Of a stretch of DNA of 64,000 nucleotides, positions 6,352 through 58,400 are shown in pieces. The position numbers and the translations under genes were made by a program. This stretch comes from Cycas panzhihuaensis (lineage: Eukaryota > Plantae > Cycadophyta). The DNA lies in assembly GCA_023213395.1 (NCBI GenBank), contig CM041465.1, forward strand, positions 89,349,741 through 89,413,740. The letters are read 5' to 3'. How positions within the stretch are numbered: position 1 is the stretch's first letter; each line of letters opens with the position of its first letter. The notes beneath the pieces were generated by a model, which was given only the letters and a program-made list of their open reading frames with translations, was not told the DNA's origin and made no database searches.

Positions 6352-6855
6352 ATAGTACATTCTCACCATTAGTGAGAGAACCTCATTAGTCAATCTAGAG
6401 GTGGCACATATCTCTATATATCCCACAACCTCAAATATAAAATATAAATAATGTAGACAGAGATTACATGAGGATAATTATATAATTGGGTATTACACCC
6501 AACAATAACTTCAACAAACCATGTCATGTTAGGAAAAAATATAGTATGTTATAGGTTAGTTAACAGTAGCATAAGGACAATCATCATAATAGAATTGATT
6601 AATAGAATATGGTAGTAAATAAAAAAGGGTTAAGTGATGTTTGGTACTTTGACTTAAGAGTTTCTAACACATGATAGGTAGGCTTCACTAGTTTAGGCAC
6701 ATGTGGGAAGCAATATAGCATATTATAACTTTAGGAGACAATAATATATTAACTATTAAGAGCATAGAGAGGATCCCATTTATAGCTTTAAATGAAGTAG
6801 ATTATCACATTGATAATGTATTATATTCATTAGGATTAAAGAATAATCTGATATC

Positions 6856-17018: not shown

Positions 17019-20000
17019 TATTGGGGTTAATGTTCCTCACCCCACTCCCATCTTAGAAACATGTGCGTGCACATATGTTAATAGTAAATTAGGTAAGTTT
17101 ATTTTAATGTTAAGTTGTGAATTATTTTATGTTTATTTAAACTTTATAGGTTGAGGAGGTTTCCCTCCTCCCTCACAACTATATATTCTATGAGGTTCTA
17201 AACACTAGTGTTCTTTAACACCACCTGCTTTGGAATATTTATATACTCTTCAACTATGGCTTGAATACAATGATATATTTTAAATGCATTTTCAATATGG
17301 ATTGAGATCAATGTTTACCTACTCTGCTATGCCCTCTACTACATTTATAACATTTAGTATCAGAGCTTATTGATCTTGGTTCGCTAACATTTAGTATCAG
17401 AGTAAATCCTAGTACATAGCTTCTAACTCTTCATTCACTCAATAAAAATACAACATAAGACTGCTTGTTGGACTCCTTGTAGGCTAATCTATTCAATAAA
17501 GAACATGGTTTGAGATTTCATCATCTATGAAAGGCGATATTGTGATTTAAATTTGTGATCTTCAATATTTAATAATAGTTTATTCTTCATAATTTTATAT
17601 GCATAAATATATTTTATTATTTGGACTTCCATTTATATTGATTTAAGGAGATCTATTATGTGAAAGCCACCCTTATTCATAGATGTTTTTGGAAAATATT
17701 TTAGTGATCTATATAAAGGATTCAAAGATCTGTTGGAGGTAAACTTTGGTGAAAGTAAGATTCAAAAGTAACATTTATTAAATATTTTATTTATTTTTGA
17801 CATTATTTATTATATAGTTTTTGAGAAATATTTGATATTTTGATACTTAAAAAATTATTTAATTAGTATTTCTTTAATATTTGTAGTCAAATTGATTGTA
17901 TTTAGCACTGCAATAGGTTGGTTTAATTATTTTTCAAATTTATTTGATAAATATCATATTTTCCATCATTTTTCACTATTTTTCAAGGGTTTTGTAAGGC
18001 TCTATTCTTCTCAATACAAGTTTTTTTTTTCAAAACTTTCATATTTCCTAGGTATCTCTCATCATTGCATCCCTTCATCTAAATTTTTGTCTCATTCCAA
18101 GTCCATTTGATTCCCCATTAGGGTTCAACACTCCAACTTTAGTTTGTCATTTTTGCGTGCAAGTCACACATACCTTAAAAAAGGTACCTATGTTATTTTT
18201 ATGATATTTCTACAACTGTTTATCCGATTTATGAACCATTTAAAGCGTAAAAAATTTGATTTATAGATCTACAGTTTAGAGTCATCATTTACTTGATTTG
18301 AGAAATTTTTTATAGAGTTTGATTAGGTCAAATTTAACCTTCTTTCTACACTTATTTGAGTTATCACAAAAGGGTCTGTTTACTGTTTATTCAATAACTT
18401 AATTATTATAGCTCTATTTTTTAAACTGTAAGAATCAACAGAAAGGATTTTTAGTGATTTATATATTAGAACTAGTTTCATATTATTTTGATACTATTTT
18501 ATAAGTGCTTACAACTCCTTAATTTAAAGCTCTATTTCAGCCATAATTAAGCAAGTTTGTGATATTTTTTGAGCTATTTTTTTCACATTTGAATAGTATT
18601 TACTGCTAATTAGTTTCTTGAGGATATTTACTAGTTTTTCATAAGATTATAAGTTGATTTGTAGCTTTTTAGCATCAATTTAGCTTCTTGAGGATCAAGA
18701 GGCCTACACAGATTAATACATCAAATTAGTATCACTTACCTTGACCATTTATTTTACTTCACATTTTCATTTGAATATAGAATAATTTTTTGATCTTATT
18801 AGATCATTTCAAGTATTATATCTTCTTAGAAATTTTAAGATATACCTAGTTTACTTCTGAATTTATAAAGGAATTTCTTATCATTTAATTTATACTAGTA
18901 TAAAAAATATTCTTTCTATATCTTAAAGTCATTTATTTAGCTTAAAAGGCATTGTAAATGGCACAATGACAAGTTCTTTTACTCATTTTATACTTTTAAG
19001 TTTATTTGATATTCTAAGATTTAAGAGTATTTAAATATTGAAGGTTCTATTGATTCATTACATCACTTAGAGAAGGTGTATATAGTATTCTTATTTACAA
19101 AGAGCATCTCAATTTGAAAGTTATTAGATTACATATAATCATTCAAGGAACATATTTGATTGAAGATATATTCATTTAAAAATTTATATTTTAAGCTTCT
19201 TGATTTACTAGTAGAAGGCATATTTGAATTTCTTTAAATCCATTGTATTTGAAAGTTGAAAGGTACATAATAGTGCATAGCTATAAACTTATTCTTTTAC
19301 ACTTTTAAGCATTTTAAGGCACACTCCATTAAGCATTTTATTTTTAAGATTAACATATTTATTATCACTTAAAATGATCATTTACTTTACATTCTTTAAG
19401 AAATTTCTTAGCTATTTGATTAAGAAGGTATTTGAACATTAAAATAAATTAAAGTTTCATTTATTTGAGTTCTTATTTTTTAGCTCTTTATTATTCAATC
19501 AATTTTTTTGAAAGAAGTACATTAAGTTTGCTTTGAAAATGAAGCTTGTTACGTTATTTTGCATATTCTTTTCAGAGGAGCATTTACCATTCTCAATTCA
19601 AAAGGATATTTGATTGCATATTTATTTTATTCAATAAAGAAATATTTATCATGCTTTATTCTTTTATGTTTTGAATAGTGAAATTTATTCTAAAGCATCA
19701 TTTGTTATTTTTTATTTGAGGATTACTCTTCTTATTTGTTTATTAAAAATCATATTTTTTGATCATGTACTAAAGTCATTTATACAATGGTAATGAATCT
19801 AAGTAACATAAGGTTTCCTACATTTGATTGAAATGATTTTTAACTATGGAATACAATAATGAAATCATACTTTATTTCAAATGACCTTTGGAAACATGTA
19901 AAAGACAGATATAAACTAAATATTAAAGAAGATATAAAAAAGGACAATGAAGCCCTAGTACTATTATTTTGTAGTACAGATAACAATATATTTTTTAATG

Positions 20001-20824
20001 TTTATGAAATAACCATAACCAAATCTATATGGGATACTTTAGAATTGATTTATGGGGGAGATACCTTAGAATTTAATATTACTAATTACATTGATGATGG
20101 TTTTCTTGTGAGACAAATATTAGAGTAGGTGCATTTTAATGAAAAGACTAATATTACTTGTACTAGTATAGATTTTAATAAAAGTAATGACTCTAATGTT
20201 ACATTTAGTGAGATGATATATACCTTGGGCTTAGCTAAAGTAAAAGATAAAGATCAAGACAAAGCTATCTCTACTCATTCAAATCAAGATATACCTACTT
20301 GAAAACCATTTAAACCATATAATATTAAAGAAACACACTTTGTCGAAAGGATGATAAGGCAAGTTATTGATTACATCAATGATGATGATGATCAAGCTAA
20401 AGGATAAGTATTCAAAGTCTTTCTTAAGTATTTATTCCATAAGTTTAAGGAGAAATAAAAGATGATTATGATGAACATTAAGGGGGAGTATGTTGGGGTT
20501 AATATTCTTTACCAAACTCCTACCTTAGAAACATGTGAGTGCACACATATTAATGGTAAGTTAGGTAAATTTATTTTAATGTTAAGTTATATATTATTTT
20601 ATATTTATTTAAATTTTATAGGTTGAGGAGGTTTCTATCCTCCCTCACAACTATATATTCTATGGGATTCTAAACCCTGATGTTCTTTAACACCACCTAC
20701 TTTGGAATATTTATATACTCTTTAACTATGGATTGAATACAATGATGTATTTCTAATGCATTTTCAATATGGATTGAGATTAATATTTACCTGCTTCACT
20801 CCGCTCTCTGCTACATTTCCAACA
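17019..20824 (+). mobile_element. Non-autonomous Copia-derived LTR element (Gag-N-terminus only; TR-GAG/LARD-like)
   Basis: 334-bp LTRs 17019-17352 and 20491-20824; TSD ACATA/ATATA; PBS tttagtatcagagc 17353-17366, duplicated at 17390-17402; PPT agggggag 20481-20488; no pol. Confidence 0.9.
19787..20490 (+). pseudogene. gag: Truncated gag-like ORF (Copia Gag N-terminal/UBN2-like) with an RNase-H-tail-like C-terminus
   Basis: FPTFD..MKSYFISNDLWKHV..KDNEALVLL..TKSIWDTLELIYGG; ends FKVFLKYLFHKFKEK..IKGE at the PPT. Confidence 0.75.
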
Positions 20825-25170: not shown

Positions 25171-25909
25171 TAGAGTAACCATATTACTTGACATCTGGGT
25201 GATATCATTCTAAGCGATAGTGAAATCACTCTACATGGTGATGAACTAGGTCTCTAAAACTAAAATTTTATCTACCTGTGCTAGTGCCATCATTTGGATA
25301 AATATAAGCTACTGAAGGAGAAGGGAATTCTATAAAAAGGATTAGAAAGATAGAATGGGATAAATGATTTAGGAAGATATAGAAAGAAAGGGGGCTACAG
25401 AATTGAGAAGTGATTTAAGGGAAAGAGAAAAAAGGAAAGGGGGTGGGTGTTTATAGCCTATCAACCTTTAAAAAATGTGTAATGAATTCACTTAAAATAC
25501 TAAAATAAGTGTAGAGAGCTTGTCAAAATAGGGTAGATGAGTTTTAATGGAGCTGGAGGAGCAGAGCAGGACTTCAAAAATATTGCATCTTGAGTAAACT
25601 GGTGATTTCTGATAATTGGTGGTGTTAAAAAACACCAGGGAGGTATTCCCATCCCTTAAATAGTGGATTTTGAGGAGGCGTCAAGCACCATCACCCTACG
25701 TGCACGTTAGCCAATGTAAATTTAAAATATATTAAAAAATTAAAACAAATAAATGAAAGTGTGTACCTTAAGATAGTGGTGTCAACTCCTAGTGGCTATT
25801 GGAAGGCTCAAGGTGCCCTAGGGGCCCTTAAAGGTGGCTTTGAGGGGCCCTAAGCGCACAGGTCTTTAAATAACATTGAGATTATTCCCAATAGTCTCCC
25901 CCATAAGCC

Positions 25910-28900: not shown

Positions 28901-29360
28901 AATATTCTTTATGGGTCATGTGAGTTGAGTAACCTAAATCAATATACCATCTATCATCCTCTTCTTTCTTAGTAGAAAAACTAGATAGAAATAATATATT
29001 ATTAATTTTTGATTCTAATGAATTTGAAGGATGTCCTCTAGGGGGTGGTCAATGTTTTAAAAAATATTTATCTTTAGTGTGACCATTTTTATGACAATAA
29101 TTACAATATAATTGATCTCTTCTTCCATAAATAAGGCTTCGACTCCTTGGTTAAGAATGATCAATATTGAAAGATCTCCCCCTTTCGTCATAGAATTAAG
29201 GAGAATTGTTTCTTGGTTAGTTATCACAATAGTCATGAGTTGATCTTGAAAGTTGAGAATTCCCATGACAATGTGGACAATAAGGATGATTCTCAACTTG
29301 TCTCATTTGGTTAGGATTTCTTGGAGCATTAGGATTTCTTACAGGGTTTTTATATTGTTG
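25910..29360 (-). pseudogene. pol: Copia gag C-terminus (zinc knuckle), protease, integrase, RT, RNase H pseudogene
   Basis: YCNYCHKNGHTKD; WYIDLG; LWHRRFGHLN..CEGCLLGKQHR..DICGPM..FIDDFTRK; WVYKTK..LYVDDL; TGYTNSDWAS..SIKWPKIWYF region; stops and frameshifts. Confidence 0.95.
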
Positions 29361-29610
29361 GGGTTGTACACCTCTCAATATTTATAATTTTGGGAGAGGA
29401 GGGAAACTCCTCAACCCTTGAAATTTAAATTAATAATAAAATAATGCTAACTTAACTCAAATGAAACTAACTCAAATTAACTTAAATCAAATCAAATCTT
29501 ACCTTAACTTACCTACACATATTGAGCACCCCCATATGTAAAATGAGGTTGATGAGGTGTACAATCCTGGTTAGAAGGTGGGAGTGGAGTAATGACGATT
29601 AACTCTAACA
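29361..29610 (-). repeat. Internal partial LTR (U3-like part) of the 49300-55908 family
   Basis: gggttgtacacc..gaggagggaaactcctcaacc..aacttaactcaa..acaatcctggt..taaca aligns with 49655-49879; preceded on the element strand by a PPT (rc ttctcaccct 29611-29620). Confidence 0.88.
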
Positions 29611-30360
29611 TTCTCACCCTTAATGGTCATCACAAACACTTGTATCTTCTCCTTGAACTTATGGAACTTGTGTTTGAAAAAAACTTTAACATTCTGATCT
29701 TTATCAACTTGCTTCAACCTTCTTGCAAAATATATCTCTTTACCAAGAAGTGGTGCAAAAAAACTATAAGTAAATGATGCTTGATTTGTACAAAAAAGAA
29801 TAGCTGCAACTTTGACTTTAATTTCTGGAAATTTAACTTTGACTGTCATATCATTAGGTCTCTTTTCTGTCATATCATAAGATTCATTCTCCATCATGTC
29901 CTAAGATTCATTCTCCATCATGTCATAAGATTCATTCTTCATCATGTTATAAGATTCATTCTCCCCCTCAAATAGAGGATCAGGTACTTATGTAGCAAGT
30001 TGGTCCTGCGATCTGAATCTTCATGGGTGTTGTCATCATGATTTACCTGTTCTGTCACCTATCTCACATGCTCATAAAAAATAATATCAAATACATTAAG
30101 GGTATCTCCCCTGTAAGTAGAAATTAATACATCCCAAATTGATTTAGAAGTAGTTAATTCACAAATCTTTAAAAAAATATCATCATTCATAGTGTAAAAT
30201 AATAAACCTAAAACTTTATTATCTTTTTTAAAATTTTCTTTAATATTGAAATCATATTCACATTATAAATATTTTAGAAGGTCATGTGAAATAAATAATC
30301 TTGTATAGTTCTATACCATAGTTAAAAAATTTGCCTATTAAATATAGGAAATTGTGCCAT
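29611..30360 (-). pseudogene. gag: Truncated gag-like ORF of the non-autonomous family
   Basis: MAQFPIFN..; TSKSIWDVLISTYRGDT; ends DKDQNVKVFFKHKFHKFKEKIQV..IKGE; homologous to 49880-50624. Confidence 0.8.
29871..29962. repeat. 24-bp coding minisatellite (~4 copies, ENESYDMM)
   Basis: catcatgtcataagattcattctc repeated; ~3 related copies at 50157-50228. Confidence 0.85.
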
Positions 30361-33300
30361 TTTATCAAAGAAACTTTAGTACATAAAAAGTATGCTTTTA
30401 CCAAATCAAAAAGTTAATAAATGAATGAACATATATGACTTTAAATAAATTTTTTAAATGAGATATAATACCCTTTGAAAATAAATGAACTAAATGCAAC
30501 CTTTATAGGTGTAATAAGGAAATAAACTTTTCAATAATGATAAATGCTTTTAATATATGTATGCCTTTAGAAAGTATATGAACTAAGCATAATAAGGAAA
30601 TGATCATTTCAATAATGATAAAAAATGCTTTTCAATAAGTATACCTTTCAAATAAACTTTGAAATAAAATGAATATAAGAGTAAATTTGAATGTAATAAA
30701 TATTCTTTAGCTATGCAAATCTGAAATAAACTTTGATGATAAAAAAAGTCCTTAACCTTTTGATTTTCTTTAAATGAATAAATACAACCTTTCAATGCAA
30801 TAAATCCTTAGCCTCAATGATAATATATAATGTTGAAACTAAAATGTATATGTGTATTTTCACTTTGAAAAATAAAGAATATGAAGAAATATTTGAACAA
30901 AAAGTATTGTACTTCTTAAAAGAAAGTTTTATAGGATAACCTCAAGTTTGGAAGCTTCAAAACTATGCTAAATGATATTAGAATAATGTGAAACTTTACC
31001 AGTATATAGATAAATGAAATATATATCTAATAGAATTGACCGTTTTAAAAATGGTTCCTACAAGTCAAATTTGAATAATTCAAATGTACATACCTCCTTT
31101 TGAGGCCTAACATGAGTAGGGACATCAAAATTATATAAAAATGCCAATAAAATACTTATGAAATACTATTAAAAAGATTAAATATCATTAGAAGACTGCT
31201 TAATATATTTTCAGCTAAAAAAATTTGAGAGATATATAAAACATATATAAAAATAGTAGATTTGAGGTAATTAAGTATATCAATTTTGATCGATTTGAAA
31301 ATCAGTAAAAGCACATTAAAACATATAAAAACCTATGTTAGATCGAAGAGGGGTGATTCAACTTCCCAACAAAACTAGCGTGACTGAATTCTGATACAAA
31401 ACAAAGAAGTTATAACAAAAATGACAGTAGGTACCTTTATGGTAAAATGTTTAAAAGGTGCTAAAAAAACACTAAAGTGCCACTTTCGGTGATTAAAATA
31501 ATGATTAAAATAAATTCTAAAAAATAAAATAAATAGTTAGTAATGAAGTTTATTGAATGTAGATCATTGTAGAATAAATCTAGGTAGAAAATAATTTCTT
31601 AGTAATAAAATATAATTAGTTCAAAAAATGATTTTGTAAAAAGTTTAAAAAAGGCTCAAAAAAGGATTGATTGACTTTAAATCTACTGAAATAGGGTCAA
31701 ATCAACACTAAATTGGTTATATGACCAGTCAAAATTGATCTATAGAAAATATTTCTGACCCAATGAAACTAATTTCATTAAAAATTTATGACTTAATCAG
31801 AAGTTATGGCAAAAATTTAGCAATAACCCTATGTAAAATTAAAAAAGAAAAAAAAAAAAAAAAAGTTTTAAACGTTGTTATCCCCTTATTAACGTAAGTT
31901 AACGGTCATATGAATATGGATATGAGCAAGGGCTAGCAGGAAGGGGCTAGTTTTTTTTTTTTTCTTAAATGTTAGAACTCAAAATTTATATAATTTAATT
32001 TAATCAATTCAAACTATATAAAAAAATAAAAATAACAATAAAACATAAAAAAAATAAAAGGGAAGTAATGCGATATGCCACTGTTATTGCCTACGTGTCA
32101 TCTGTTGCGTCGCCCTCCTATCACGCTGTGCTACACAAAGTTTTGCAGAGAGCCGTGAGACACCACCAGGCTAAGGTAAATCCTGCGCTATCGCCACAAC
32201 CAACAGGCGAGCCAGAGGATTTGAAATCAAGATGGAGTGGTGGGTGGAGGCTTCTTCGATGATTTAGGAATTGCAGTCTATAAGCTACACATTTAACAAC
32301 TCCAGATCGCTTTGATTAAATAGAATATCAAACAAAGAAAAGGAATAGGGTGATAGTGGTAATGTAGTTAAGGGTGGTTGGAAGCATATGGATCTACTGT
32401 AACATGCAGAAGAAAGACTCTATGGTCTGCACGAAGCAATCCGTTCACCATTCCTCTTTCGGGTTCAATCTTCGAGATCAGAGATAGATTGTGGAAGCGA
32501 TGGATTGGGTGTTACTCAACAGATCTTGGTTAATAGTACATTTGGAGGAATTTGATGATGATGATAGGGATAACAGTCAGGTGCATTCAGTAGCTCAAGC
32601 TGTGATTGTAGGTTTATATAAATAAGGGCTCCATCAATACCATTCCACCATTAAATTACTTTTTCACGTATTATTAAGACATGGTGACGTGCTGCTTCAA
32701 CCAAAAGTAATCATCGGAAAGAAGATCTTCTATTATTTTCGAGTTGGATTTTGGTCTCTTATTTGGAATATAAAAGCAAAGTGGCTATAGTATTTGTTTT
32801 GTATTTCTATTTGGTGTCTTAAATAGAAACTTTCCTCTGGTAATAGAAAAAGAAAAAAAATTGTAACTGTAGAAGGATGCTCATATGAGTCTCAGCTTCG
32901 AAACATTGAAAGGCCGCACTAATTATGTATTATGCATAATTGCTCTTATTGATGAAATGGCGAAATACTTATGCAAAGCGTGATCTCGTGGATTATAACG
33001 ATTTGTGATTCTATACAACCCGATGGAGTTTGCTATCTACCCAACACATTATTTGTACACGCATCGTTTGCATTTAACAACTATTATCAGAAGAATTTGA
33101 GGGCATTAGGAACCTGTAATTTTGGTGGTTGGACGAAAGGAGTGAAAAATGCCTCAACAGTAAAAGCAAAATCATCTTTTGGAGGAGAAGGAGGCGAGAA
33201 TATGCATGATCCAACCAAGCAACCATAATAGAGGAAAGGAGATTCCAAAGGAGCATACGCATGAAAAATCTGAGTGATTTGTTATTGGCTTTGGTGCTTA

Positions 33301-33949
33301 CACATGGTGATACGAGTAATAAAATGAGAACTAGTATATTTTCATATATTAGTAGGCTATGGACAAGTATAAGGAATTTAGATCAAACGTATCTTCAAAA
33401 TATGTGTTTCAATTTATTGCATAATGGGTTATTTTAAAACTGCTAAGATTATTATTGTTTGAGTGACCATCAAGTTTAGTGATGCTTCATTCTTTCTAAA
33501 CAGGCAAGGTATTTTGGGTGTTATTCATCATTGCAGATGGTGGCTTGTTTCTGACCTTTTAATGACTTCTTGGCTGTGTTCGCTTCATATGAAGGAAATA
33601 GAATGGATGGATGTTTTTCAAAATCTTATAGCTATTATAGAGAGGAGCTTTTGACCATCTACTAGTTTGTTTTACACTCTTAAGTTATGCGTTATTATAT
33701 TTCTTGAAGGTAGATTTGCTTATTCAGTTGATTTCAAATCAGAGGGAATAATGAGCATGGGACATAGCTGAGAAAATAAACTGAAAGCCTAGCCAAGATG
33801 GGCTGAAAATATAATCTTATCACTTAAAATGATAATGAAAAATATTTAAATGAAAATATTTATATATAAACTCATAAAAACTGGTGATTCAATGTTGAGT
33901 TTTTTTGTTGATTCAATGGATCACAAATGAAAATAAAAGATTTTAAATA

Positions 33950-35060
33950 TTTTGACAAAAATATATCAAGCAAATGAAATGCATGTATTTATATTTGAGA
34001 TCTTTTCAAATATATTGCAGATATATCAGAAGTATGTATTTAAAACTAAAAAAATAACTGAAGAACCTAGAAATATAGTTGTAGCAAACTTGCAATAGAA
34101 AATGGTCTTCAAAAAGCTTCCAGTAGATAGATCTTCCTCCACATAAGTTAAATATAGGTAGATCTGTTGTAATATGTGGCTTGTTGGGTTGAATATGCAC
34201 TAAAAGCTATAGATATGTAAAAAACCTTAAAAAATATAGTCAAATTTATGATGAAAAAACACAGATCTAAAATAAAATATAGTAGATTTGAACTAAATGT
34301 TGTAGATTTGCAACAAATATACTAAAAAATGTTAAAATAATTACTGAAATAAGTAGGTTTGTAATGAAATATAGCAAATTTGAACCAAATATAATAGAAA
34401 ATAGTAAAGTATTTAATGAAATAAGCAGATCTGAAAAAATGTAGCACATTTGAAAGAAAACTTAATAAATATTATAGATCTTAAACTAAATATTGCAGAT
34501 CTAACATAAGTATAGTAAATCTAAAAAATATAAGGCAGATCTTGAAGAAATATAGCTCAAATCTGAGAAAAAACTTGAGTAAATATTGTATGCAGCTGTA
34601 ATCTTTCATAGATTTGAAAAATATTTGATAAATAGATAGAAATCTGCTTGAAAAAATGCCAAATATTTGATAAAAATGTAGATCTAAGAAAATATATCAC
34701 AAATCTCAAGAAAACTTGAATAATATGTATCTTGCTACTGATCTCCTTCATAAATCTGCATAAATATTAGATAAATAGGTAGAAATATTCTTAAAAATAG
34801 TTAAATATATGATAAGATGTGTAGATCTAAAAAAATATAACTCAAATCTAAAAGAAACTTTGAAAACAAATGTAGCTTGTAGCTGAAATCCTTTATAAAT
34901 CTATATAAAATCTGAAGAAATCTGAAGTATGTTTGTTATAGCATAAATATATCTTAATAATAAGCAAATCTACTAAAAAATAGAAGAAACTTACTGAAAA
35001 AATCTTGAAAAAAATAAATGTAACCAGTATTTTGCTTGTGAGCAAATCTGCCTCAAAATC
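33950..35060. repeat. Degenerate array of AGATCT-core motifs in the leader after the PBS
   Basis: Recurrent gcagatct/gtagatct/caaatct every ~20-40 nt; homologous array at ~54380-55270. Confidence 0.65.
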
Positions 35061-36206
35061 TTCTTGCTTCTTTGAAAAATTTCAATAGGCGAGTAGTCAT
35101 CTGCTCTCATACCAAATGATGGAGCTAGAGGAGCATAGCATAACTTCATAAAGATTGTATCTTGAGTAAATTGGTGATTTCTGATAGTTGACAGTGTTAA
35201 AAAACACTAGGGAGGTATTCTCATCCCTTAAATAGTGAATTTTAGGGAGGCGTCAGGCACCATCACCCTACCTGCATGTTAGCCAATGCAAATTTAAAAT
35301 ATATTAAAAAATTAAAATAAATAAATCAAAGCATGTACCTTAAGATAGTGGTGTCAGCTCTTGGTGGCTATTGGGAGGCTCAAGGTGCCTTAGGGGCCCT
35401 CAAAGGTGGCTTTGAGGGGCCATAAGCGCACAGGTCTCTAAATGACATTAGGATTATTCCCAACAAGTTTTAAGTAAAATTTTTAGGTTATGGGATCCAT
35501 GAGGTTATTTTTCTTCAAAATGATGGTTAAAACTAACCTAATGGAAAATGATCAGTATAAAGCATTAGTTAGAATAAGATGTATGGATGAATAAGAGTAA
35601 AATTTAGCCCATAAATATTTTTTTATATGGACTCTCCTCATTTAGGTTTCATTTATAACATAGTAACATTCGTAGAAGTGACCCTCTAGAGGAATGGATG
35701 TACAAAGAGTCATATTCTTATCTAGGCTTTTTTTTTTTTTGAAGAGTGGGCACTAGACTTAAGGACTAAACTTTGAACTCAAGGACTAGACTCTTAATTA
35801 AAGGTACGGATGGGAAGAAGTCGATAACTACTTTAGTATTATTATTATGTTATGATTTTATAAGTTACTTCTATCTTATATTTTATGTTATTAATGTTGC
35901 TATTGTACTATAATTTATAGCTTGATTATATCTTGTAATTATCTTATTGATGCTTATGGTATAATTAGTGAGTGTAGATTTGTATTTTTTTTTTTGAGCA
36001 TCGATATTGAGACAATATAAAATAATATTAATGCAATAGGTTTTCCTAACAAACTCTAACACCTATTTACTTTGTTTATAGGCCCTTTAATAAGTGTCTT
36101 TATTGATATTAATGCTTAGCCTAATATATTAGACCATTAATTAGTGAGGAATATTCATTCCCATAGCCACAATAGCCATGTAAAGGTGTTCAAGAAAGGT
36201 ATCTTC

Positions 36207-45869: not shown

Positions 45870-48800
45870 TGTTGGAATAGTTTAGTCCACACGAAGTATA
45901 ATAGCAATGTACATTTATATAAATTACTCTATTGTGCACATGAAGTATAATAGTAATGCACATTTATACAAATTACTCTATTATGATGTCGATATTTTAT
46001 AGATATTTTATACATAGTCATATTGTATATTATAAATACACAACCAATGTATTATATGCAATAACTTGATGTAAGAATGTTTCGATGGTGTTAATCAAAG
46101 TTAAAGTACCTTAAGGGTATCATTATAATATTGGTGTTTATTTTTATCCGTTATGATATTGGTGTTTATTTTTATTTATGTAAATATTATTTTTTGTCAT
46201 CTTATTTTTTAATATGGTTTCAGAGTGTTCAGGTTATGTAAGATTTGTTGAGACCCTAGTGTGATTATTGCAGCTCTATCGATTTGCTTGGTAAAAACCT
46301 AGTTCTAATGATGTGTGGGAGGAGGTGGCTTTGTAGAACTCGTTTGCCAGTTTGCCACAATTGGTTCATAACTCTGTTCGTAGGTTCATAGTTATGTTGT
46401 AGTGAAACCCTAGTTGTAAATTAGGGTTCTGTTGTGCCCATCTATTGCCTACTAGCGTTGAGTGTTGCTCCGTTTATGGTTCATGTGAGGGGTGTACTTG
46501 GTCCAGTCGTTTTATTTTGTCTAGAAACACTTTTAGACTCTTTGCAAATGATTGTTTTCTTAGAGAGATGTTGAAGAGACTGTAGATGCAGAGACACTTG
46601 CTAAAATCACTGTAGAGGTTGAAGTGTGTAGTAGAGATTGTAGCTACAATTTTTTTTGTAACAATCATAGACACACATGAAAGACGAGTATTAGTATTGT
46701 ATCTACATTACATGTAGCCAATGCTTGGATGCCCCTGTAAGACACCAAAAATTTATAGCTGAAAGTCATTACGTAGATTTTGTGTGCCATTTAAGGCATG
46801 TAGATATCACGGGAGAAACAATCATAGCTTGTCATGTTTATCTACGAAAATTCAAAGTATTTTCATATTATATATTCGCCTGGATGATATTGATTTAATC
46901 GTCGTTGAATTACATTGCATCTATTTGTATTGATAATGTTACATGACATTATAAGTCATCACATATGATATATTAATTCTTCGTCATGTTTGATAAATTA
47001 AGTCACCCATGCATTTATATATTGCATGATTTATAAATCGCTAGATCGAATTATCACCCATAGTAATTGAATTTGATCCATCTTTTATCGATTTGATTTA
47101 GTTATCAGTCCACGTTTTCATTTTTTGCACACAGGTGGAATTATGACACATATTTTTTTAATAGCTTTTTAAAAATTTAACTAGATTGAAATTGTGATTC
47201 AAATCTATTAGTCCCATGCGCCTCAACCCCTTGGTCATATAGTATATTGATATGATCTATTTTAATTAGCTAAGGGTGTTAAACCCTAAATTTTTGTTAT
47301 TTTTTTAAATTACATTTTTTATAAAAGGGTACTTGGACGTTTTCCTTAATATCTCGAGTTTTAGGAGTTTGTTTTTTGAACTGTCTAAACTATTAGAATC
47401 CTGACTTTGATATATTTTGATGCTATTTTCATAGAGAAATTTAAGATTAAATTTAAGTCTTTATACTAGATCCCTATGTGGTAACTAGACAAAACTCTCT
47501 TTTGCACCTTTTACATCATTCTCTTGCCTATTCTTTGAACCCATACTAACTATTTTTAAAACCCTAGAAGGCTATTGTAAACCATTTTAAGGAAATTTAT
47601 TGTAACTTATATATTTGGATCCTATAAAGGACTAAGAGACAGAAGAAGCTCCTAAAATCAAGGATAGGGTAGCTATTATCTTGCTGACAGATTTGTGACT
47701 ATGTGGCCTATCTTGTATGCATTTGAAATGAATTTTTAAAATCTTGATTACTCATTTGATCAGTATAAAGGAGGTCATAAAATTGAGAAGATAGTATATA
47801 TAAATTGATATGTGACTCATTCTTGAGTAGTTTACGCTTACAATTATAGAAGAGAATGGCGTAGTGATATTCTTACATGAGACAAATAAATATTATTACT
47901 TAAGGGATATACTTATTCCAATATCTCGGTGTATTGGAGCTAACTACTATTTATGGACAATTAGAATAAGATGTTTGTTCATAGCCAGAGGTTTATGGAA
48001 AATTGTTACTGATGGATATGATATTCTTAATGATGAATAAGAAAGGGGAAAACTTAAGAAGAAAGACAAAAACATTTTTCATGATTTTTGTTGCATTAAA
48101 TAAGTTGATCTTCCTCCAACATATTATGTTATTATTCATAAGGTTTACCATGCTAGTACTACTAAGGAAGCTTAGTATTTTTTGAAAGATATATTTAAAA
48201 GGACTCCTGAAGAGATATAATAGATTATTGATAAGACAAACAAGATTATTGATGATTATGATACACGTAAAAAGAATGAAGAAAGTACTATTGATGATGA
48301 TGTAAAGGTGTATCAAGACATTGATGGAGAAAATATGAATATTAATGAAACTACTACTGAACATAAAGAGACTATGGTTGAATGTATTGTTGAGACTACT
48401 ACTACTATTGAAGATGTTGAGAGTGATAAACTAATTACTATTACTAGTAAACATGATCAAGCAATTAATGTTCCTAATGCTCCTATTGAAGATAAGTTTG
48501 ATGATTTATCTCTATCTATTGATTCAAGTCCAAATGATGTTCCTATTTTGAGTATTGATTCAAGTTTGAAGAATTTGTAAGTTGATGAAGATTCTACTCC
48601 AAATGTTGAAGAAATTATTGATTAAGAAGAAGAATTTATGTAGGATGCTAATATTTATTTTACAAATAATTCTACTAACAAATAGGTTATGATTAAATAC
48701 ATGCTTAATGTAAAATTTGAAGATATTACTAATATTTGTAAAGATAGTTACTTACAGGATCTACATTAAAATCAAATTAGCCCTCTTCCTATGATGAAGA

Positions 48801-49247
48801 ATCAAAATTTGCATCCTAGTATGAAGAATTTCAAGTTTAAGGATCATTACTTACTAGAGTTGTTATAGCAAAGACATCAGTACATAATTGAAGACAAAGA
48901 TTAAGTTGAAGACATCATCTTCAAGGCATTTCCAAGGATAAAGTATTGTAAATTCAAATGACCTAAATATGCATTAAGAGGGAGTGTTGGAATAGCCTTG
49001 TTCACACTTCGTGAGGCATAATAGTAATGTACATTTGTGTAAATTAGTTTCTTATGATGTTAGTATTTTATACATAGTCATATTATGTATTATAAATACA
49101 CAACCAATGTATCATATGTGACAACTTGATGTAAGGATGTTTCAATGGTATTAATCAAAGTTGAGGTACCTTAAGGGCACTATTATAATCCTGGTATTTG
49201 TTTTTGTCTCTTCAAATATTATTTTTTGTCATCTTTTTTTTTCAACA
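45870..49247 (+). mobile_element. Non-autonomous Copia-derived LTR element with truncated gag-like ORF
   Basis: LTRs 45870-46214 and 48985-49247; PBS tggtttcagag 46215-46225; PPT aagagggag 48976-48984; gag-like ARGLW..DGY at ~47985 followed by an acidic low-complexity ORF; TSD poorly conserved (AGGAA/AAGAT). Confidence 0.8.
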
Positions 49248-49299
49248 AAGATAAACACTCAATATTTGGGCTTTTATTTTATTGAATTTATGTAGAAGA

Positions 49300-49465
49300 T
49301 GAAGGAAAATAATGTTTGCAAGACTATGCTTTGATACTAAATGATGGAAACAATAATAGCAGGACTATGCTCTGATACCAAATGAAGGAAAATAATGTTT
49401 GCAAGACTATGCTCTGATACCAAATGATGGAAATAATAATAGCATGACTATGCTCTGATACCAAA
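49300..49465 (-). repeat. Tandem array of 4 (U5 end + PBS) units, ABAB, inside the 3' LTR
   Basis: Units 49300-49341, 49342-49382, 49383-49424, 49425-49465, each ending gactatgctctgataccaaa (first unit slightly mutated). Confidence 0.95.
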
Positions 49466-49879
49466 TGAAGGAACAATAGTAGTAGGAGAACAGGGCAGAA
49501 CATATATCAAACAACCATAAACTAATATTGCATCAATACATCAATGTATCACAATCACAATAGCATAAAAATATGAAAGTATTATTGTTCAATCCATTGT
49601 AGCAGAAAAGAGTAATACAAATTTCTCATATGAGGGCGGTGTCTAAAGACACCAGGGTTGTACACCCCATAATATAAATAGTTTTGGGGGAGGAGGGAAA
49701 CTCCTCAACCCATGAATTCAAAATAACAATAAAATAATGTAACTTAACTCAACTAAACTAACTCAAATTAACATTAATTACCTTAACTTACCTTGACATG
49801 TTGAGCATCACATGTCTAAATTGAGGTGCACAATCCTGGTAGGTAAGAGGGAGTTGAGTGATGACATTACACTATAATA

Positions 49880-50624
49880 TTCTCCCCCTTAATATCAGCA
49901 CAGACACTTGTATCTTTTCCTTAAACTTATGGAACTGGTACTTGAAAAAAACTTTAAAATTCTGATCTTAATCTTTATCAACTCTTCTCACCCTTATAGT
50001 TACATATGTCTCTTTATCATGGAATGATGTAGAAAAACTATAAATAGATGAAACTTGATGTAAATGTAGATGAATAGCTGTAATTTTGACTTTGTCAACT
50101 GGAACATTAAGAAGGCTTTGAACTTGAACTTTTATAATCTTTATGCTTTGAACAACTATCATATCATCAGGTTCATTCTTTGTCATATCATCAGATTCAT
50201 TCTTCGTTATATCATAAGATTCATCTTCATGCTCCCCCTCAAATGGAGGATCAAATCCTTATGCAACAAGGTGGTCCTGCATTTGATTTGAATCCTCATA
50301 GTTGTTGTTGTCATGATCTATCTATTCTGTTACTTGTCTAACATGCTCATCAAATACATTGGGGGTATCTCCCCCATAAATGGAAATTAATAAATCCCAA
50401 ATAGACTTAGATGTTATTAATTTAGAAACCAATGAAAAAACATCATTAGTCATAGTGTAAAATAATAAACCTAAAACTTCATTATCTTTTCTAAAATTTT
50501 CTTTAATGCTAAGGTCACATTCATGTTGTAAATACTTTAAAAGATCATGTTCAATAAAGTAAGTTTGCATGATGTCATACCATAGTGAAAAGTTATGGCC
50601 ATCAAAAATAGGAAATTGTTCCAT
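49880..50624 (-). pseudogene. gag: Truncated gag-like ORF (Gag N-terminal/UBN2-like domain, acidic repeats, RNase-H-tail-like end)
   Basis: MEQFPIFDGHNFSLWYDIMQTYFIEHDLLKYL..KDNEVLGLL..TSKSIWDLLISIYGG; the frame continues through isolated stops to FKVFFKYQFHKFKEKIQV. Confidence 0.8.
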
Positions 50625-53600
50625 TTTGAAAGCAATGTAATAAATAAGAAAATAATAATGCGTTTGAAAGCAAACTTAAAAAATCCTTTTCACTTATGCA
50701 AAACTAAAATAAACTCTTGAGAATGAAATATAAAGAGTTTTCAAAAATACCAATTTCTTAAATGAGTAAATTTAAATCTTCAATATAAGAAAAACTTTCC
50801 CTTTTTGTATAAAAAATAACTTTTCTTTGAGAAAAATATATATTGCCTTATGAATAAATACTAGTTCAAAACAGCTTAAAATGCTTGTAGAAAGATCAAG
50901 TAGAAACCTTGAGTTAAACAATGAGATATAAACTAGAATTTTCTTAAAAATTTTGAAAAAAGGTAAGCTTATTAGGATGTAGTTGTATGCTCAACTTTAG
51001 CAGCTTGAAAACTATACTAAATAATGTCAGAATAACTTAAAATTCTACCAATATGCAGATTAATAAGGTATGAATTCAATGAAATAAACAATTTTAAAAA
51101 CAGGTACCAATAAATCACGATTTGAATAATGCAAAGGTATATACCTCCTTATGGGGCCAAACAGGAGCAAGGTAGTCAAAATTGCATAAAATTAGTAATT
51201 AACTTTTAGAAAATATTGAAAAAATGATCAAATATTATTAATGAGATTGTTTAATGTACTTTCAATTGAAAATTTTTGAAAAAATATATTAAAAAATATG
51301 TAAAAATAGCAGATTTGAGGTAGTAAGGCACCTCAACTTTGACTGATTTAAAATTAAGGAAAAATATGTCAGAATGAAGAGAAATGAGTCAGATTCCCAA
51401 TGAAGCTAACAAAATTGAAATCTGATATAAAATGAAAAAGTTATAGTGGAAAAGGTAACAGGTGTCTTTATGTAGAATGTTAAGAAACGGGAAAAAAAAT
51501 AACTAAATTCCTTATTTCAGCGATTAAAAATACTAATGAAAATAAATTAAAAAAATTGAAGTAAGAAGTGGGTATTGAAGTCTATAGAACATAGATCGTT
51601 ATAGAGGAAATTTGGGCAAAAACCATATACCATTAATAAATTATAGCCAGTTCTAAAAATGATTTTGTTAACAGTATGGAAAATGCTAAAATTTTGAAAG
51701 TTTAATATTAGAATAGTCAAAACAGGGTCAAATTGGCACCAAATTGGTCATATGACCAGTTGAAATTGGTGTACAGAAAATTTTTGATCTATTGGAGCAA
51801 GTTTTGTCTGAAACCGATAAGCCAGTGAGAAGTTATGGCCATAAAAGCACCAATAACTCTATGAAAAAATAAAATTAAAAAAAAAAAAAAAAAGGTTAAA
51901 AGGTTATATTATTCAAAAAACTTCTTAAAATATGGGTCTGAAGATGAACTGAGCTGGGATTGAACCTAAGATCAGTCAGGAAATAAACACCTCCGATGCC
52001 AGGAGGATAAACTCGCTCGTCAAGATTAAAAACATAAAAGATTATTGAAAAATGTTATATTAAAGAATAAATGGCTGCTGTATACAAAAGCTGAATGCCG
52101 ATAAGATAATCAAACAATGAATAATATAATGAACAGGCAAGGGTGCAACAATGATGCAAGCCGAGTGTAATAATCAAATAATGAATATAATGGAATGGCA
52201 GGGCACAACAATGATGTAAACCGTATGATAATCAAATAATGAATAATGAACAATGAATAAATAATGGAATGGAACGGTATAATAATGAGATGATCAAATA
52301 ATGAACGCCAAACTGAACCCCAATATATATAGTAAATAATGATGATAACCTTAGAATGAACCGCACCAGAGTCGAATAATATCACACAATGGCAAGAGGC
52401 TGATTACACAATGGCAAGGGGTATCTAATAATGAGATGATGAAACATAATGTAATAAAAACGGAGCTGAATATAATCAAATAATGATGGACAATAAAATA
52501 AGGGCAAGGGCACTGTGCCATATAACAATGAAATGCCGTATAATAATCAAATTAAATAAAGTAATGGAACAGCAATGAATAAGCCAATATTAATGCAAAC
52601 CGTGAACAAAACCTGAACGCAATGCAATATGCAATAATGATGACCGAGCAAGCCGTAGTAGTGAATAATGAAGTTGAATGCACAAATACTGAATGGTACA
52701 GATCCCTTAGCTGATCGAGCTGGCACAGAGGCCAAGGAGACGGCAATAATGCACACTGAAGGAGACGTAATATGCAATGCATATAGCCATGCAGGAGACA
52801 GAATGACGTAATACGAGATGATGCAAATAAGCACGCAAATAACGAGAGACGAAACAATTAAATGAGGCGCGTACGAGTCTAATAACCAGCAACAAAGCGT
52901 TGAGCCAAGATAGCATAATGATTACGATGCAAATAACCGAGAGATGAAATAATGAGACACGGGCCTGGCAAGGCGAGATGGCACCGATTGCAGGGGCACG
53001 GGACGATGCCGATTAAGAGTCTAATAATGAAGCAGCAACTGATTAAATAAGGCGAGACACTAGACCGGTAATGAAGCATGGAAAGACGGAAAGACAAATA
53101 TATAAGACGCAAAGTGAAGTGAAGTTAATATTAAAAAAAAAAAATGCTGATTAATAAATATTAGCATGAGACCTAATATAGAAGACATAAGCCAGAGCCG
53201 ATTAATAATGAAACGGCTTAGCAACCCGATTGCAGGTGCATCGCAGGAGACAAGATGGAACAGCCGAGTCGAACAACACAGTACCGAGATAGCACATAGG
53301 CTGAGAGGAGTAATGGGCAGCGCGAATATTAAAAACAGATGGCAGAATTAAATGGCGATGACCCTTCGATTTAGTCCAATAATAATGAAGCAAAAAAACT
53401 CCGATGAGATGCACTGAATGCATGATGCAAGCTTCGAATGTAAATTGATGGGGCCCAAAACAAACGGTTGATTGTAGAGAGGCGGTAACCAATGCTAAGG
53501 TATTAGCCAAAGGAGCACATTTTAAGCGGCCATAAGTAATGACGCAAAGATACAATAATTGCAGGCTACGAGTAACACAGAGAGAAAGAGAGGGTTAAGT

Positions 53601-53714
53601 CAAGTCGAGAGGGTGAACTGCACCCATCAAATACACTCTGCTGACACTCTGTCTAGAAAATTCTTTTATTTGATCACTATAATTAGAAATTTGATTAGTG
53701 ATGAGGTAGTTGTC

Positions 53715-53981
53715 ATGACACAGAAAAATGAGGTTGAAAATGGCAAGCTAGAGGTAATAATCCAAGAAAATGTAAAATTATCCAAACAATTACAGGAAAG
53801 TAATGTAGCAGTTAGAAAGTTACAGGAGTATTCTGCAGAGCTTCAAAGGCATTTGATTGATTTTGAACAAGGAGTTAATCAATTTTCAGAGCAACAGAGA
53901 GAAAACATTGATGTTCTTGATGGTAGTAATGTTGATGATACAGATCTATATAAGTACAGGCCTTTATGTCAAATAGGTTAG
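53715..53981 (+). CDS. Hypothetical 88-aa coiled-coil-like ORF, antisense to the host element
   Basis: MTQKNEVENGKLEVIIQENVKLSKQLQESNVAVRKLQEYSAELQRHLIDFEQ: E/Q/K/L-rich with a heptad-like pattern, uninterrupted; no recognised homologue. Confidence 0.4.
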   Translation: MTQKNEVENGKLEVIIQENVKLSKQLQESNVAVRKLQEYSAELQRHLIDFEQGVNQFSEQQRENIDVLDGSNVDDTDLYKYRPLCQIG

Positions 53982-55327
53982 ATGTTTTTTTGAAATATAT
54001 CCACGAAAAATAACCAGATTCTTCTTTCCCCCTTTTTAATATATCGATAAAAAAAATATATAAAAAACATCTATAAATTTGTATTTGAAACAAACTTTAA
54101 AATATATTGCAGGTATATGAAAAAAGATACAGAGATTTTACAAAATTTTTTTCAAATAATAACAGTAAAACAACTTAATGGAGCAATATACTCATATAAC
54201 AGAGTCACAATATTAATAAATTTTTCAAATATTTTGAAGAGAATATATCATAAAAAAAACTCTTATATATTTGTATTTGAAAAAATTTTAAAGGAATATA
54301 TTGAGTAAATATATAAAATATTTGTAAATTTGAAAATGGAACTGAAGAACCTGGAACACGCAGTTGTAGCTGGCTTGATCTCGTGTATATCTTCTTCAAA
54401 AGGATGAATATGCCTCAAATATTGTAGATCTGATAAATAGTTGATTTGCAGCAGAAAAAATAGGCTTGATAAGCTTCGGATGGCTGAAAATGCCTCAAAA
54501 GTTGTAGATATGCAACTGCTATCTTTTGTAGATTGAAATATAGCTTATAACTGCAAAAACACTTTTATGAATTTGCATAAATCTTGTGAAATAACACTGA
54601 ATATACTCGTTATATCATAAAAAATAACCCAATAATGAGTGAATCTATTGAAAAATATAATAAATATGTTGAAAAACTTATAGAAAATATCACCAAATGA
54701 TGAAAAATCGCTAATCTGAAGTGAGACCCAGTAGATCTGTAAAAATATTATGTAAATGTTGTAGATATGGCCTTAGTATAGCAGATCTATAGCAAAAAAT
54801 ATCACAGATATGAATAAATATAATATAAAATAGTGAAAACTTATTGAAATAAGCAGATTTATAGTAAAAAAATAGCAGATCTGAAGTAACAAATTGTAAA
54901 TCTTTGAAGAAAACTTAATAACTTTTGTATGCAGCTGATGCTCTTTTGCAAATTTGTAAAAAATATCAAATAAGTAGACAAATAACTTGTAAACTATCAA
55001 AATATATGATAAATCTATAGATCTGAAGAGAAAAATAACTTAAATATGAGAATAAAACTTGAATGTATATAACTTGCTGCTGAAAATCCTGCGTAGATCT
55101 GCACAAATCTGAAAATAGATCTCAATAATATTTGTTGAACCAGAAATATAGCTCAATAATAATCAAAATCTACTGAAATAATATATAAAACTTGTTAAAA
55201 ATTTTTAGAAAATAAATATAGTTAATATATCTTACTTGTAAAAAAAATCTGTTGTAGAATGCTAGTAGATCCTGTTGCTCTTCTTCAAAATTTCAACAGG
55301 CTAGCAATCGCCTACTCTGATACCAAA

Positions 55328-55493
55328 TAAAGGAAAATAATGTTTGTAAGACTATGCTCTGATACCAAATGATGGAAACAATAATAGCAGGACTATGCTC
55401 TGATACCAAATGAAGGAAAATAATGTTTGCAAGACTATGCTCTGATACCAAATGATGGAAACAATAATAGTAGGACTATGCTCTGATACCAAA
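55328..55493 (-). repeat. Same 4-unit PBS array inside the 5' LTR
   Basis: gactatgctctgataccaaatga repeated four times with alternating spacers, plus the internal PBS at 55315-55325. Confidence 0.95.
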
Positions 55494-58400
55494 TGAAGGA
55501 ACAATAGTAGTAGGAGAACAGGGCAGAACATATATCAAATAACCATAAACTAATATTGCATTAATACATCAATGTATCACAATCACAATAGCATAAAAAC
55601 ATGAAAGTATTGTTGTTCAATCCATTGTAGCAAAAAAAAGTAATATAAATTTCGCATATGAGGGCGGTGTCTAAAGACACCAGGGTTGTACACCCCATAA
55701 TATAAATAGTTTTGGGGGAGGAGGAAAACTCCTCAACCCCTGAATTCAAAATAACAATAAAATAATGTAACTTAACTCAACTAAACTAACTCAAATTAAC
55801 ATTAACTTACCTTAACTTACCTTGACATGTTAAGCATCACATGTCTAAATTGAGGTGCACAATCCTAGTAGGTAAGAGGGAGTTGAGTGATGACATTACA
55901 CTTCAACAGAAGAAATGGTTAAAGGGTATATAGTTAAATCATTAGGTTGTAAGTGGGTACAAGTTTGAGTCCTTTCAACTCACCCTCACAAAGCACACAC
56001 ACACTTTTTAGATTAGTTACTCTTTTTTAAAAACACTTTTATCATTTTTAATTCTTATATGTATGCTTTAATTAACACCACTATTAAGGTATGGATGCAC
56101 CCTCATTTAACTTGTTTTAGGGAGCTCTTTTAAGATCTTAAATCCACATATATTCACTCATATTCAACATTCAAATATGCTTTCTAGTGGATACTAAATG
56201 ATCCTATTTATTATATATAATACTTCACACTTTTGATTAATTAAATATGTATATATGTAAAGGTAAAAGTGAACTTTAGAAGGTATTACATATTGATCGT
56301 TAAATATCATATTTTGGTCAAGTTTTGATGAGTTTGTAAGCTTGTAAGTACACATATATCATACACATTATAAAGAGGAAATAGATCACTTGTATACACT
56401 TTATAGATGGCTTCATTTTAACACTTGATGACAACCCTCAAATCCCTTTAAAATGAAGCCCTGTAATTTATGATTCTTTAATCAACTTCTAATAAGTATT
56501 CAAGTGAATAAACTTACAGACATATACTTCTAAAAACACATTCATTTTATAAGGACAAGAATAAAATTTAAAGACGTAACATTATGATTATTGAATGACA
56601 TATTCTCATCCATTACTATGATTTTCTAATCAAATTGAATTTTATATTTCATAAAGAATTTTGATGCATGAAATATGTCTAAGGTTTAGAAAGTAAAGGA
56701 TCTTTTATTCCTTGGTTAAATCATCATTTTCTTGACATATATTAAAATTTAAGAGAATTAAGTGCTCATGTGGTTCTCCTCGTGTAGGACATAGGTAAGT
56801 ATTTTCAAACCTATATATAGGTATAAAATTAGATTTTATAATTATTAATGTACTTATAGGTTAGGGGGAAAACTACTTGAATTCACATTTTATTTTGCTA
56901 AAATAAAATGAACTGAAGGTAAGGGAATATGTTGCATTTTCATGTAGTTTGATTTTGATTTTTTTTTTGACATAGAAAAATAAAGTTAAATGATAAAATT
57001 TTTACTTCATTTAGCTATGTTGGTATATAGGTGCATTGGGGGTTTTAGATTATATTTTCATTTCAATTTTAGAATAACTCTTATAGGAGTTAAGGCAAAC
57101 ATTATTGGAAAAAAAAATTACAAATATATATTAAAAGTAGCATAAAAATTTTTATTTTTATTATATAATTACATATGATGAATTCAAGATTTGGTAGATC
57201 CTTGATGCCACCTCCTACTTCTATCTACGTGTATCATTCAATCGACATCTTAGGCTATGACTTTTTATTGAACTAGAATTTTGAAATGAGTCATCATCAT
57301 CAAAGTGTTTCCATTTTATAAATTCGTCAGTGTTACTTAGGATCCTTGAGTATGCCTTAAGTATTTATAAAGTCCAAGTCATATTTTATTACTCTTACAA
57401 TGACATTATTGGGATAAGACCTTGTATAATAGTGGGGCCCTATAGCGTGCCAAGCCCTCATCTAGCTAGGGTTAATTCCCTAGTAGGGATATGATCATAT
57501 TGGTGTATTTTACTTGTTAAGACCTATCCATAAAAACCTAGGCTATTAAGTAACTTTATGTTACTAATTAGGCTATGTGTATACCAAAGAGTAAGTGGGT
57601 TGACTCTATGCTCACTCTTTAGGAGTGTGTCATAAAGTTATGGCTAGTTAAGTAGCATTCCCTAAAGAGACTATAGGGGCATTTATCTTGCCACTCCCTA
57701 TACTATTCAATATTACTTAAGGTATTTTATGGTTTACCTTAGAGTTCATCACCATGGTTGGTGATGATGATTTTAATAGGGGTTGAGGTTGTATCTTGTA
57801 GGGGAGCCCATCTAGTAATCCTTGGTTAGAGGAGTGTACAGGTAGCTTTAAAGACTTTAGGTCAATCTTCCCTACCTTATTGTAGAAAAATATCAACATG
57901 ATAGCCTAGTGTTAGTGTAGTGGGTCAAGCCCCCACCAATTAAGTCAATTTTATTTTATTATTTATTTGTTTATTTGTTCATTAGGTTATTTAAATCCTT
58001 AGATTGATTATTTCATATTTTGATTAAGTGACACATAGTTCACTATCGTTCAATCGAGAACCCCCCTTTTAATCTTATTTCTAACTCATAAAATATTAAC
58101 CTAAATATGATCTTAGTCTCATACTAGGTGTTTAAGTTATTTTAGGTGGAAATTGAGGGTATTATATTGTTTTATCGGTATTTTTCTAGTGATCATATTG
58201 GGGAATTGAATTGTAGTCTAGTAGCTTGTCACCTATCCCTTCCCTTTCTTTTATAATGGTGTATTAGTATCTTGGAGTTCCTGTTAATCCCAATAGATTT
58301 TCTTAATAATTGAGAGTTTTATCTCCTCTTTATTCTTATACAGTTAAGGAGGATTTTGTCCCTTATTAATCAATAAATCTATATCTTTCACCTCATAGTT

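Follow-up and report, generated by a model that had tools for sequence, protein, structure and literature searches.

Tandem primer-binding-site modules inside both long terminal repeats of a non-autonomous retrotransposon from Cycas panzhihuaensis

The canonical junction of plant Ty1/copia retrotransposons, as outlined in the sources cited, has a tRNA-Met primer-binding site (PBS) just inside the 5' long terminal repeat (LTR), and the insertion is flanked by a 5-bp target site duplication (TSD) (PMC6317226, PMC7197481). The element described here lies at positions 49300-55908, on the minus strand, of a 64,000-nucleotide stretch of Cycas panzhihuaensis DNA (assembly GCA_023213395.1, contig CM041465.1, positions 89,349,741 to 89,413,740; hereafter the window), with copies of the TSD GAAGA at both ends. 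It agrees with the outlined plan in its TG...CA termini, its 5-bp TSD, a 12-nt tRNA-Met PBS located 2 nt from the LTR end, a polypurine tract (PPT) and a copia gag stub. However, while a single PBS outside the LTR is the rule in that plan, this focal element adds four junction modules inside both LTRs. The presence of stacked modules in both LTRs is probably due to cDNA primed at the last of five PBSs, which would have copied the four upstream modules into both ends. Most likely, the array is a tolerated by-product of reverse transcription, recurring in many plant LTR families.

Several described systems come close to this arrangement. Voronin and Pathak in 2004 and Li et al. in 1997 reportedly found that dual initiation is frequent and that dual PBSs are stably maintained in HIV or vectors. 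The likeness lies in the presence of two PBSs in one RNA 5' end; those systems, however, are engineered or culture-selected HIV with two sites, whereas arrays of the focal type are natural, comprise 2-6 sites, have a separate CA end for each site and are fixed in LTRs across species. In Drosophila Gypsy the primer tRNA is bound at more than one site, the second being dispensable and located at the RNA 3' end (PMC1635307); unlike the sites of the focal array, this second site, as presented in that source, is not in tandem at the U5 border. For Cassandra, a terminal-repeat retrotransposon in miniature (TRIM), and for complex elements, tandem units have been proposed to result from template switching or recombination (PMC7215508, PMC1950507). 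Cassandra has the same 12-nt PBS as the focal element (PMC7215508), but the repeated unit in these accounts is a whole LTR plus an internal domain with a PPT, whereas the focal unit is a 41-42-bp junction without a PPT. This unit rules out a tandem complex LTR element sharing a middle LTR, and identity with Cassandra or another TRIM was rejected on the 6.6-kb length of the element and on an Rfam search that rendered no 5S domain and only a chance snoRNA match (E value of 0.85).

Judged by its features, the focal element is a non-autonomous LTR retrotransposon and passes the structural tests applied, with two direct LTRs bearing TG...CA ends, a TSD within the range of 4-6 bp, the PBS adjoining the leader (PBS5) and a PPT. 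An exact 5-mer TSD match would occur by chance with a probability of ∼0.001, and the TSD follows module 4 only, with no TSD sequence after the internal module ends of the 3' LTR. The 5' LTR measures 581 bp (55328-55908) and the 3' LTR 580 bp (49300-49879), with TG and CA as outer ends; between them there are 18 transitions, 4 transversions and a single gap column, and the Kimura two-parameter distance (K2P) is 0.039. Each LTR consists of a core (415 and 414 bp, respectively) and four modules of 41, 42, 41 and 42 bp in ABAB order, every module being made up of TT, the 12-nt tRNA-Met PBS, ATAGTC and a variable, U5-like end finishing in CA. The 12-mer is the tRNA-complementary PBS of PMC7215508, and its pairing with the tRNA is predicted here. 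It has 12 matches with at most one mismatch in the window, versus a mean of 0.11 after shuffling; 8 of the 12 fall inside the focal element, where a ninth site (49328-49339) shows two mismatches. CA plus two bases precede every PBS of the element, one CA having decayed to TA. The anatomy given in a preliminary description of the locus (a TSD-bounded element with four ABAB units of 41-42 bp, all ending in CA, in both LTRs, and a fifth PBS) was thus confirmed, except that module 4 of the 5' LTR ends in TA, PBS5 has one mismatch and the module-4 PBS of the 3' LTR has two.

The same description had called the element pol-less, as was indeed observed. Its 5.4-kb internal region contained no open reading frame of 150 aa or more and no match to pol, the gag N-terminal stub near the 3' end being the only coding remnant. 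This stub matched Pfam Retrotran_gag_2 with an E value of 6.7e-5 and 22.9 bits, below the curated cut-off of 27, and the N terminus of a copia polyprotein with a tblastn E value of 1.4e-6, and no longer homologue of it was found (0 of 44 candidates). The assignment to the copia type, which follows from a stub below the Pfam cut-off with no pol to order, is accordingly a weak one. Large non-autonomous derivatives (LARD-like elements) have an interior of several kilobases without pol, conserved internal RNA structure and no coding remnant; the focal interior is pol-free over its 5.4 kb and a gag stub is present.

The divergence between the two LTRs was similar in the array (K2P of 0.044 over 166 nt) and in the core (0.037 over 414 nt). 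Because array and core diverged equally, both LTRs already contained the array when the element inserted. The four AB copies vary in seven columns; each of these is a singleton, and no column sets AB1 apart from AB2 in both LTRs. Thus, the AB halves were identical at insertion, and AB had doubled to ABAB shortly before it. The A and B variable parts differ at 6-9 of 27-28 positions, and sequence comparison places the A/B split before the AB doubling. To compare modules with the core end, a gapped test was used, an ungapped 22-nt comparison being uninformative. In this test the A variable part clearly copies the end of the core U5 (background 30-mers as good numbered 0 and 1 of 20,000), whereas the B variable part matched its own core over the last 12-13 nt only (274 of 20,000). 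The resemblance of the variable parts to the U5 end noted in the preliminary description holds for A and, in B, only over that short stretch.

In LTR retrotransposons, the synthesis of minus-strand DNA sets out from the PBS, with U5 and R as its template (PMC7197481). Following this established mechanism, an LTR that ends 2 nt before PBS5 points to priming at PBS5, and we consider, with strong confidence, that the cDNA of the focal copy was most likely primed there. Priming from the most downstream PBS had already been proposed for this element, in concordance with the position of the TSD, 2 nt short of the PBS5 position, with the presence of the array in both LTRs and with the divergence values given above.

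The primer site used during copying would set where the LTR ends, and priming at any PBS would be expected to yield a CA-NN end usable by integrase. Priming at the last PBS would place the array in both LTRs, as in the focal element, while priming at the first would leave the array in the leader and give a short 3' LTR, the relative at 17-20.8 kb of the window being the one example. Priming at two sites on one RNA would delete the intervening stretch; in dual-PBS retroviral vectors, dual initiation is said to delete the stretch between the sites. Integrase acts on a CA-NN end at the cDNA terminus and is not known to cut inside the cDNA. The earlier idea that each unit offers an alternative CA end for integrase is better understood in the sense that every PBS has its own CA-NN in front, rather than as cutting inside a cDNA. 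Similarly, PBS choice had been thought to make the LTR grow or shrink at each cycle. It does shift modules into or out of the 3' LTR, but it adds none, and enlargement of the array needs either out-of-register transfer or DNA slippage. With moderate confidence, we attribute growth to out-of-register second-strand transfer, in which plus-strand strong-stop DNA ending in a PBS copy would anneal to an upstream PBS, or to U5 microhomology, on minus-strand DNA made from a co-packaged RNA, possibly that of a sister subfamily. Annealing of AB to PBS1 would turn the 5' side into ABAB, which a following round with priming at PBS5 would copy to both LTRs. The reverse-transcription steps invoked are those of PMC7197481, and the stacked PBS modules are explained largely by known reverse-transcription chemistry.

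The older relative at 17019-20824 has two PBS-like sites 37 bp apart after its 5' LTR, and its 3' LTR reaches no further than the end of the core, short of the position of the first PBS. This layout matches the prediction for priming at the upstream PBS and is the only hint of alternative PBS use. The spacer has 7 nt in common with its own core end, and no second match to it was found in the window (best, 16/23).

Stacked PBSs were not confined to the focal locus, nor was their number fixed, as arrays of varying size were found both in metagenome loci and in contigs of related organisms. A scan of metagenome contigs for the tandem-PBS pattern PBS-N18-45-CA-NN-PBS rendered 33 loci in 11 sequence clusters, several loci being one place assembled twice. 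These arrays have 2-6 PBS-like sites, the number varying within clusters, and occur in copia and gypsy elements, both coding and non-coding. Locus L032, for instance, is a copia element with an intact-looking gag start, and L013 a gypsy element in which Ty3 capsid and protease were recognised. Arrays are thus not peculiar to pol-less elements, being present in coding members of both superfamilies, and the idea that a multi-PBS leader helps a pol-less element to compete for primer tRNA and reverse transcriptase (RT) is weakened. The pattern forces a CA before one PBS per locus; at the unforced sites, CA-NN stood in front of the first PBS in 32 of 33 cases and in front of a later PBS in 15 of 16. 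A control pattern without the CA constraint had three matches in prokaryote genomes, all of them plain tandem repeats without CA-NN, and one in viral contigs.

LTR-like copies ending at CA after two or three modules were observed in L002, L017, L027 and L016, the last of which (the same place as L029 and L033) has such a copy downstream of a copia RNase H region; five sister contigs show one module and then leader. LTR ends after a PBS-bearing module occur in the focal family and in two other clusters. Twenty array joints were examined, of which 2 were uninformative; among the 18 informative ones, 16 have a module with no more than 2 nt in common with the beginning of the leader, which locates the joint at the PBS end. 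The modules of L023 and of the L002 cluster are U5-end copies that begin immediately after the PBS, where 3-4 nt nearly match the end of the PBS.

Regarding related organisms, 20 of the 21 sequencing runs listed (11 studies) contain the stretch or part of it, and 10 contain at least half its words. The contigs of six runs were compared, with X1, X2, X5 and X3 on 55150-55960 (6,400-9,700 contigs per run) and X1, X2, X9 and X7 on 55285-55535 (1,800-3,000 per run), and the results refer to the best matches listed. Pieces spanning two or three PBSs were found in X1, X2, X7 and X9, so that organisms A, B, D and E carry arrays. One joint in X3 reveals a further module, and among the pieces listed for X5 none covered two PBSs. 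Mixed flanks (agreement of 0.57-0.59) joined at a module end were found in at least 9 contigs of X1, at least 9 of X2 and at least 10 and 7 of X9. Variable parts continuing straight into core LTR were present in at least 11 (A-type) and at least 3 (B-type) contigs of X7, at least 5 of X9 and at least 3 of X2. Since both types run into core sequence, A and B are both U5 ends of other family members. In at least 3 X7 contigs, leader plus PBS was joined directly to the core, corresponding to a module-free copy, and back-joints indicated BB order and further module types. Joints skipping approximately 1-4 module lengths are mostly ambiguous, since a module can be placed at several positions, and only those with leader letters at one side suggest array-free copies. 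Summed contig depth, which was higher within the array than at its junctions, is not a copy number and was not used. In all, these contigs show module variation, not the use of an inner PBS of a given array.

Several observations weigh against an origin of the modules by reverse transcription. Its support comes from sequence, and includes no TSD-matched pair with one array primed at two PBSs. No clear microhomology accounts for the origin of the focal A joint, and the second PBS of the relative at 17019-20824 could postdate insertion. The spacers of L004, L006, L013, L019, L022, L024, L030 and the 17-kb relative share 4-10 nt with the core end; because only these few nucleotides match their own core end, a U5-copy origin is not established for them. 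L016 and L026 are 99.9% identical upstream, and L026 may be an assembly chimera, while the second L002 copy is without a TSD. The contigs of related organisms are short, with ambiguous modules and no readable TSD, and every one of the module-end flanks may belong to the last module of its own array. Finally, the modules of L003 and L005 open with leader sequence, of 12 and 28 nt, which is the outcome expected of ordinary tandem duplication.

The main rival explanation is DNA slippage with inert inner sites. According to it, the array would be the product of ordinary slippage, or of unequal crossing-over, where the 5' LTR of a parent copy meets the PBS, only the leader-adjacent PBS would prime, owing to leader structure, and the upstream modules would be unused extra U5. 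The head-to-tail repeats of 41/42 and 83 bp in the focal array are natural substrates for slippage, with which the recent AB doubling is equally compatible, the L003 and L005 modules do consist of leader start plus U5 end, and the module-end flanks in related organisms could all be terminal. We nevertheless regard this origin as unlikely. A leader prefix is absent from the 16 arrays mentioned above, the 3' LTR of the 17-kb relative stops before the first of its two PBSs, A and B match different U5 ends within the family, and arrays such as that of L022 combine several module types in a mosaic, a sign of recombination between RNAs.

Reverse transcription as the source of the modules can also be taken further, to the view that a self-editing primer-site cassette is present in many copia and gypsy families of plants, its functional modules being exchanged among subfamilies, extended and pruned, with the LTR end chosen at each cycle and the stack retained through selection for primer capture or against PBS-directed small RNAs; we find this extension doubtful. 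A selected role as such, in which stacked PBSs would aid the capture of primer tRNA and RT or dilute PBS-directed small RNAs (3' tRNA fragments, miR845-like), so that array-bearing subfamilies spread, appears rather improbable. Recurrence in 11 clusters and both superfamilies, together with PBSs and CA-NN that are intact while spacers vary widely, would suit such a role, and plants do have PBS-directed small RNAs, namely miR845 (PMC7197481). However, conservation of PBS and CA-NN is automatic if modules copy the junction, and in the focal element decay is even, hitting PBSs (2 of 96 positions) and variable parts (5 of ∼236) alike. Arrays are present in coding elements too, and extra target sites could equally strengthen silencing. 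An assembly artefact or a one-locus, microsatellite-like chance repeat is largely refuted and can be given almost no weight, for although no single listed contig piece covers the whole stretch, each LTR and each module has private mutations, the TSD is exact, contigs from organisms A, B, D and E extend over 2-3 PBSs and none of the three prokaryote matches has CA-NN.

Stacked PBS modules are recurrent in unrelated copia and gypsy families and apparently undescribed in the searchable literature. No description of tandem PBS junction modules in natural LTR retrotransposons was found in the literature searched, most subscription journals being outside its coverage. LTRdigest, according to its description, gives the single best PBS near the 5' LTR border (PMC2790888), and such single-PBS reporting is one likely reason for the absence of arrays from print. 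The 3' LTR end of each integrated copy is a fossil record of the primer site used, and stacked-PBS families hence let primer-site choice and the register of second-strand transfer in vivo be read from assemblies alone, a choice so far studied mainly with engineered dual-PBS retroviruses. The arrays are also relevant to how LTR boundaries are called, to methods anchored at the PBS (ALE-seq, for instance) and to models of PBS-based silencing. Should the modules be inert, a tidy structural variant remains.

Table 1. Positions in the window of the features of the focal element and of its relative at 17 kb
Feature	Positions	Strand	Remarks
TSD, right copy, GAAGA	55909..55913	.	
5' LTR core, 415 bp, TG start, CA end	55494..55908	-	TATA-like motif at LTR position 201 (putative assignment)
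5' LTR module 1, type A: TT + PBS1 + ATAGTC + U5-end copy, ends CA	55453..55493	-	
5' LTR module 2, type B, PBS2	55411..55452	-	
5' LTR module 3, type A, PBS3	55370..55410	-	
5' LTR module 4, type B, PBS4	55328..55369	-	TA in place of terminal CA
TT spacer + PBS5, then leader	55314..55327	-	PBS5 itself 55314-55325, 1 mismatch; probable cDNA priming site
Internal region, mostly non-coding, AT-rich	49880..55313	-	Stretches 67-74% like relative 29361-35123
N-terminal stub of copia gag, 117 codons between stops, without pol	50325..50675	-	
PPT adjoining 3' LTR	49880..49889	-	
3' LTR core, 414 bp	49466..49879	-	
3' LTR modules: A 49425-49465, B 49383-49424, A 49342-49382, B 49300-49341	49300..49465	-	Final CA adjoins TSD
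TSD, left copy, GAAGA	49295..49299	.	
Older relative with PBS-like sites at 17355 and 17392, both preceded by CA-TT	17019..20824	+	LTR K2P 0.148; flanks ACATA/ATATA

Two structural features of the array region were also considered. Its predicted fold was no better than that of shuffled sequences (z of 0.81). A U5 stretch at 55520-55534 (LTR positions 375-389) pairs with PBS+ATA at -12.1 kcal/mol, a value found in 16 of 5,000 background windows; being the best of ∼400 windows, this pairing is not significant after correction for multiple testing and was rejected. Inside the focal element there is a GC- and CpG-rich block at 52600-53500 (GC of 0.40-0.44; 12-16 CpG per 300 bp versus 0-3 in most other bins). 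It has no counterpart in the relatives in the window and is possibly captured or recently inserted DNA.

The window contains four non-autonomous copia derivatives, located at 17019-20824 (+), 29358-35463 (-), ∼45870-49247 (+) and 49300-55908 (-), with a common plan, in which an LTR and a PBS are followed by a long AT-rich interior and then by a gag N-terminal stub lying near the PPT, before the second LTR. The 3'-end location of the stub is odd, and an acidic low-complexity repeat often comes after it. A composite copia element at 25547-35463 (-) is bounded by copies of AAACT. It is arranged as an LTR with a single PBS, a leader 67-72% like the focal one, a gag stub, a PPT and a short focal-like LTR (29358-29610), after which it continues into copia gag-pol remains and then an outer LTR; from this order, it could be a nested insertion minus everything between two PBSs. 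A neighbouring copia RT showed 38-58% identity to the best 120 matches listed, the named ones being plants.

Among the metagenome loci, L022 (2086-2400, +), L001, L006, L013, L019 and L031 form a gypsy cluster with a GC content of 0.52-0.57 and mosaic arrays of up to 6 PBS-like sites. Its spacers, of 44-67 nt, have a constant 3' half in common, but not the core LTR end, and one spacer type is used by different LTR cores. The copia loci L024 (697-810, +) and L032 (-) are 77% alike downstream of the last PBS, with different LTR ends and four versus two PBSs; the L024 modules are 72% like the focal array, its LTR core being unlike the focal one. Plant pararetrovirus genomes are conventionally numbered from the tRNA-Met primer site, and a viral contig, L034, starts (positions 1-33) with two tRNA-Met PBSs 21 nt apart.

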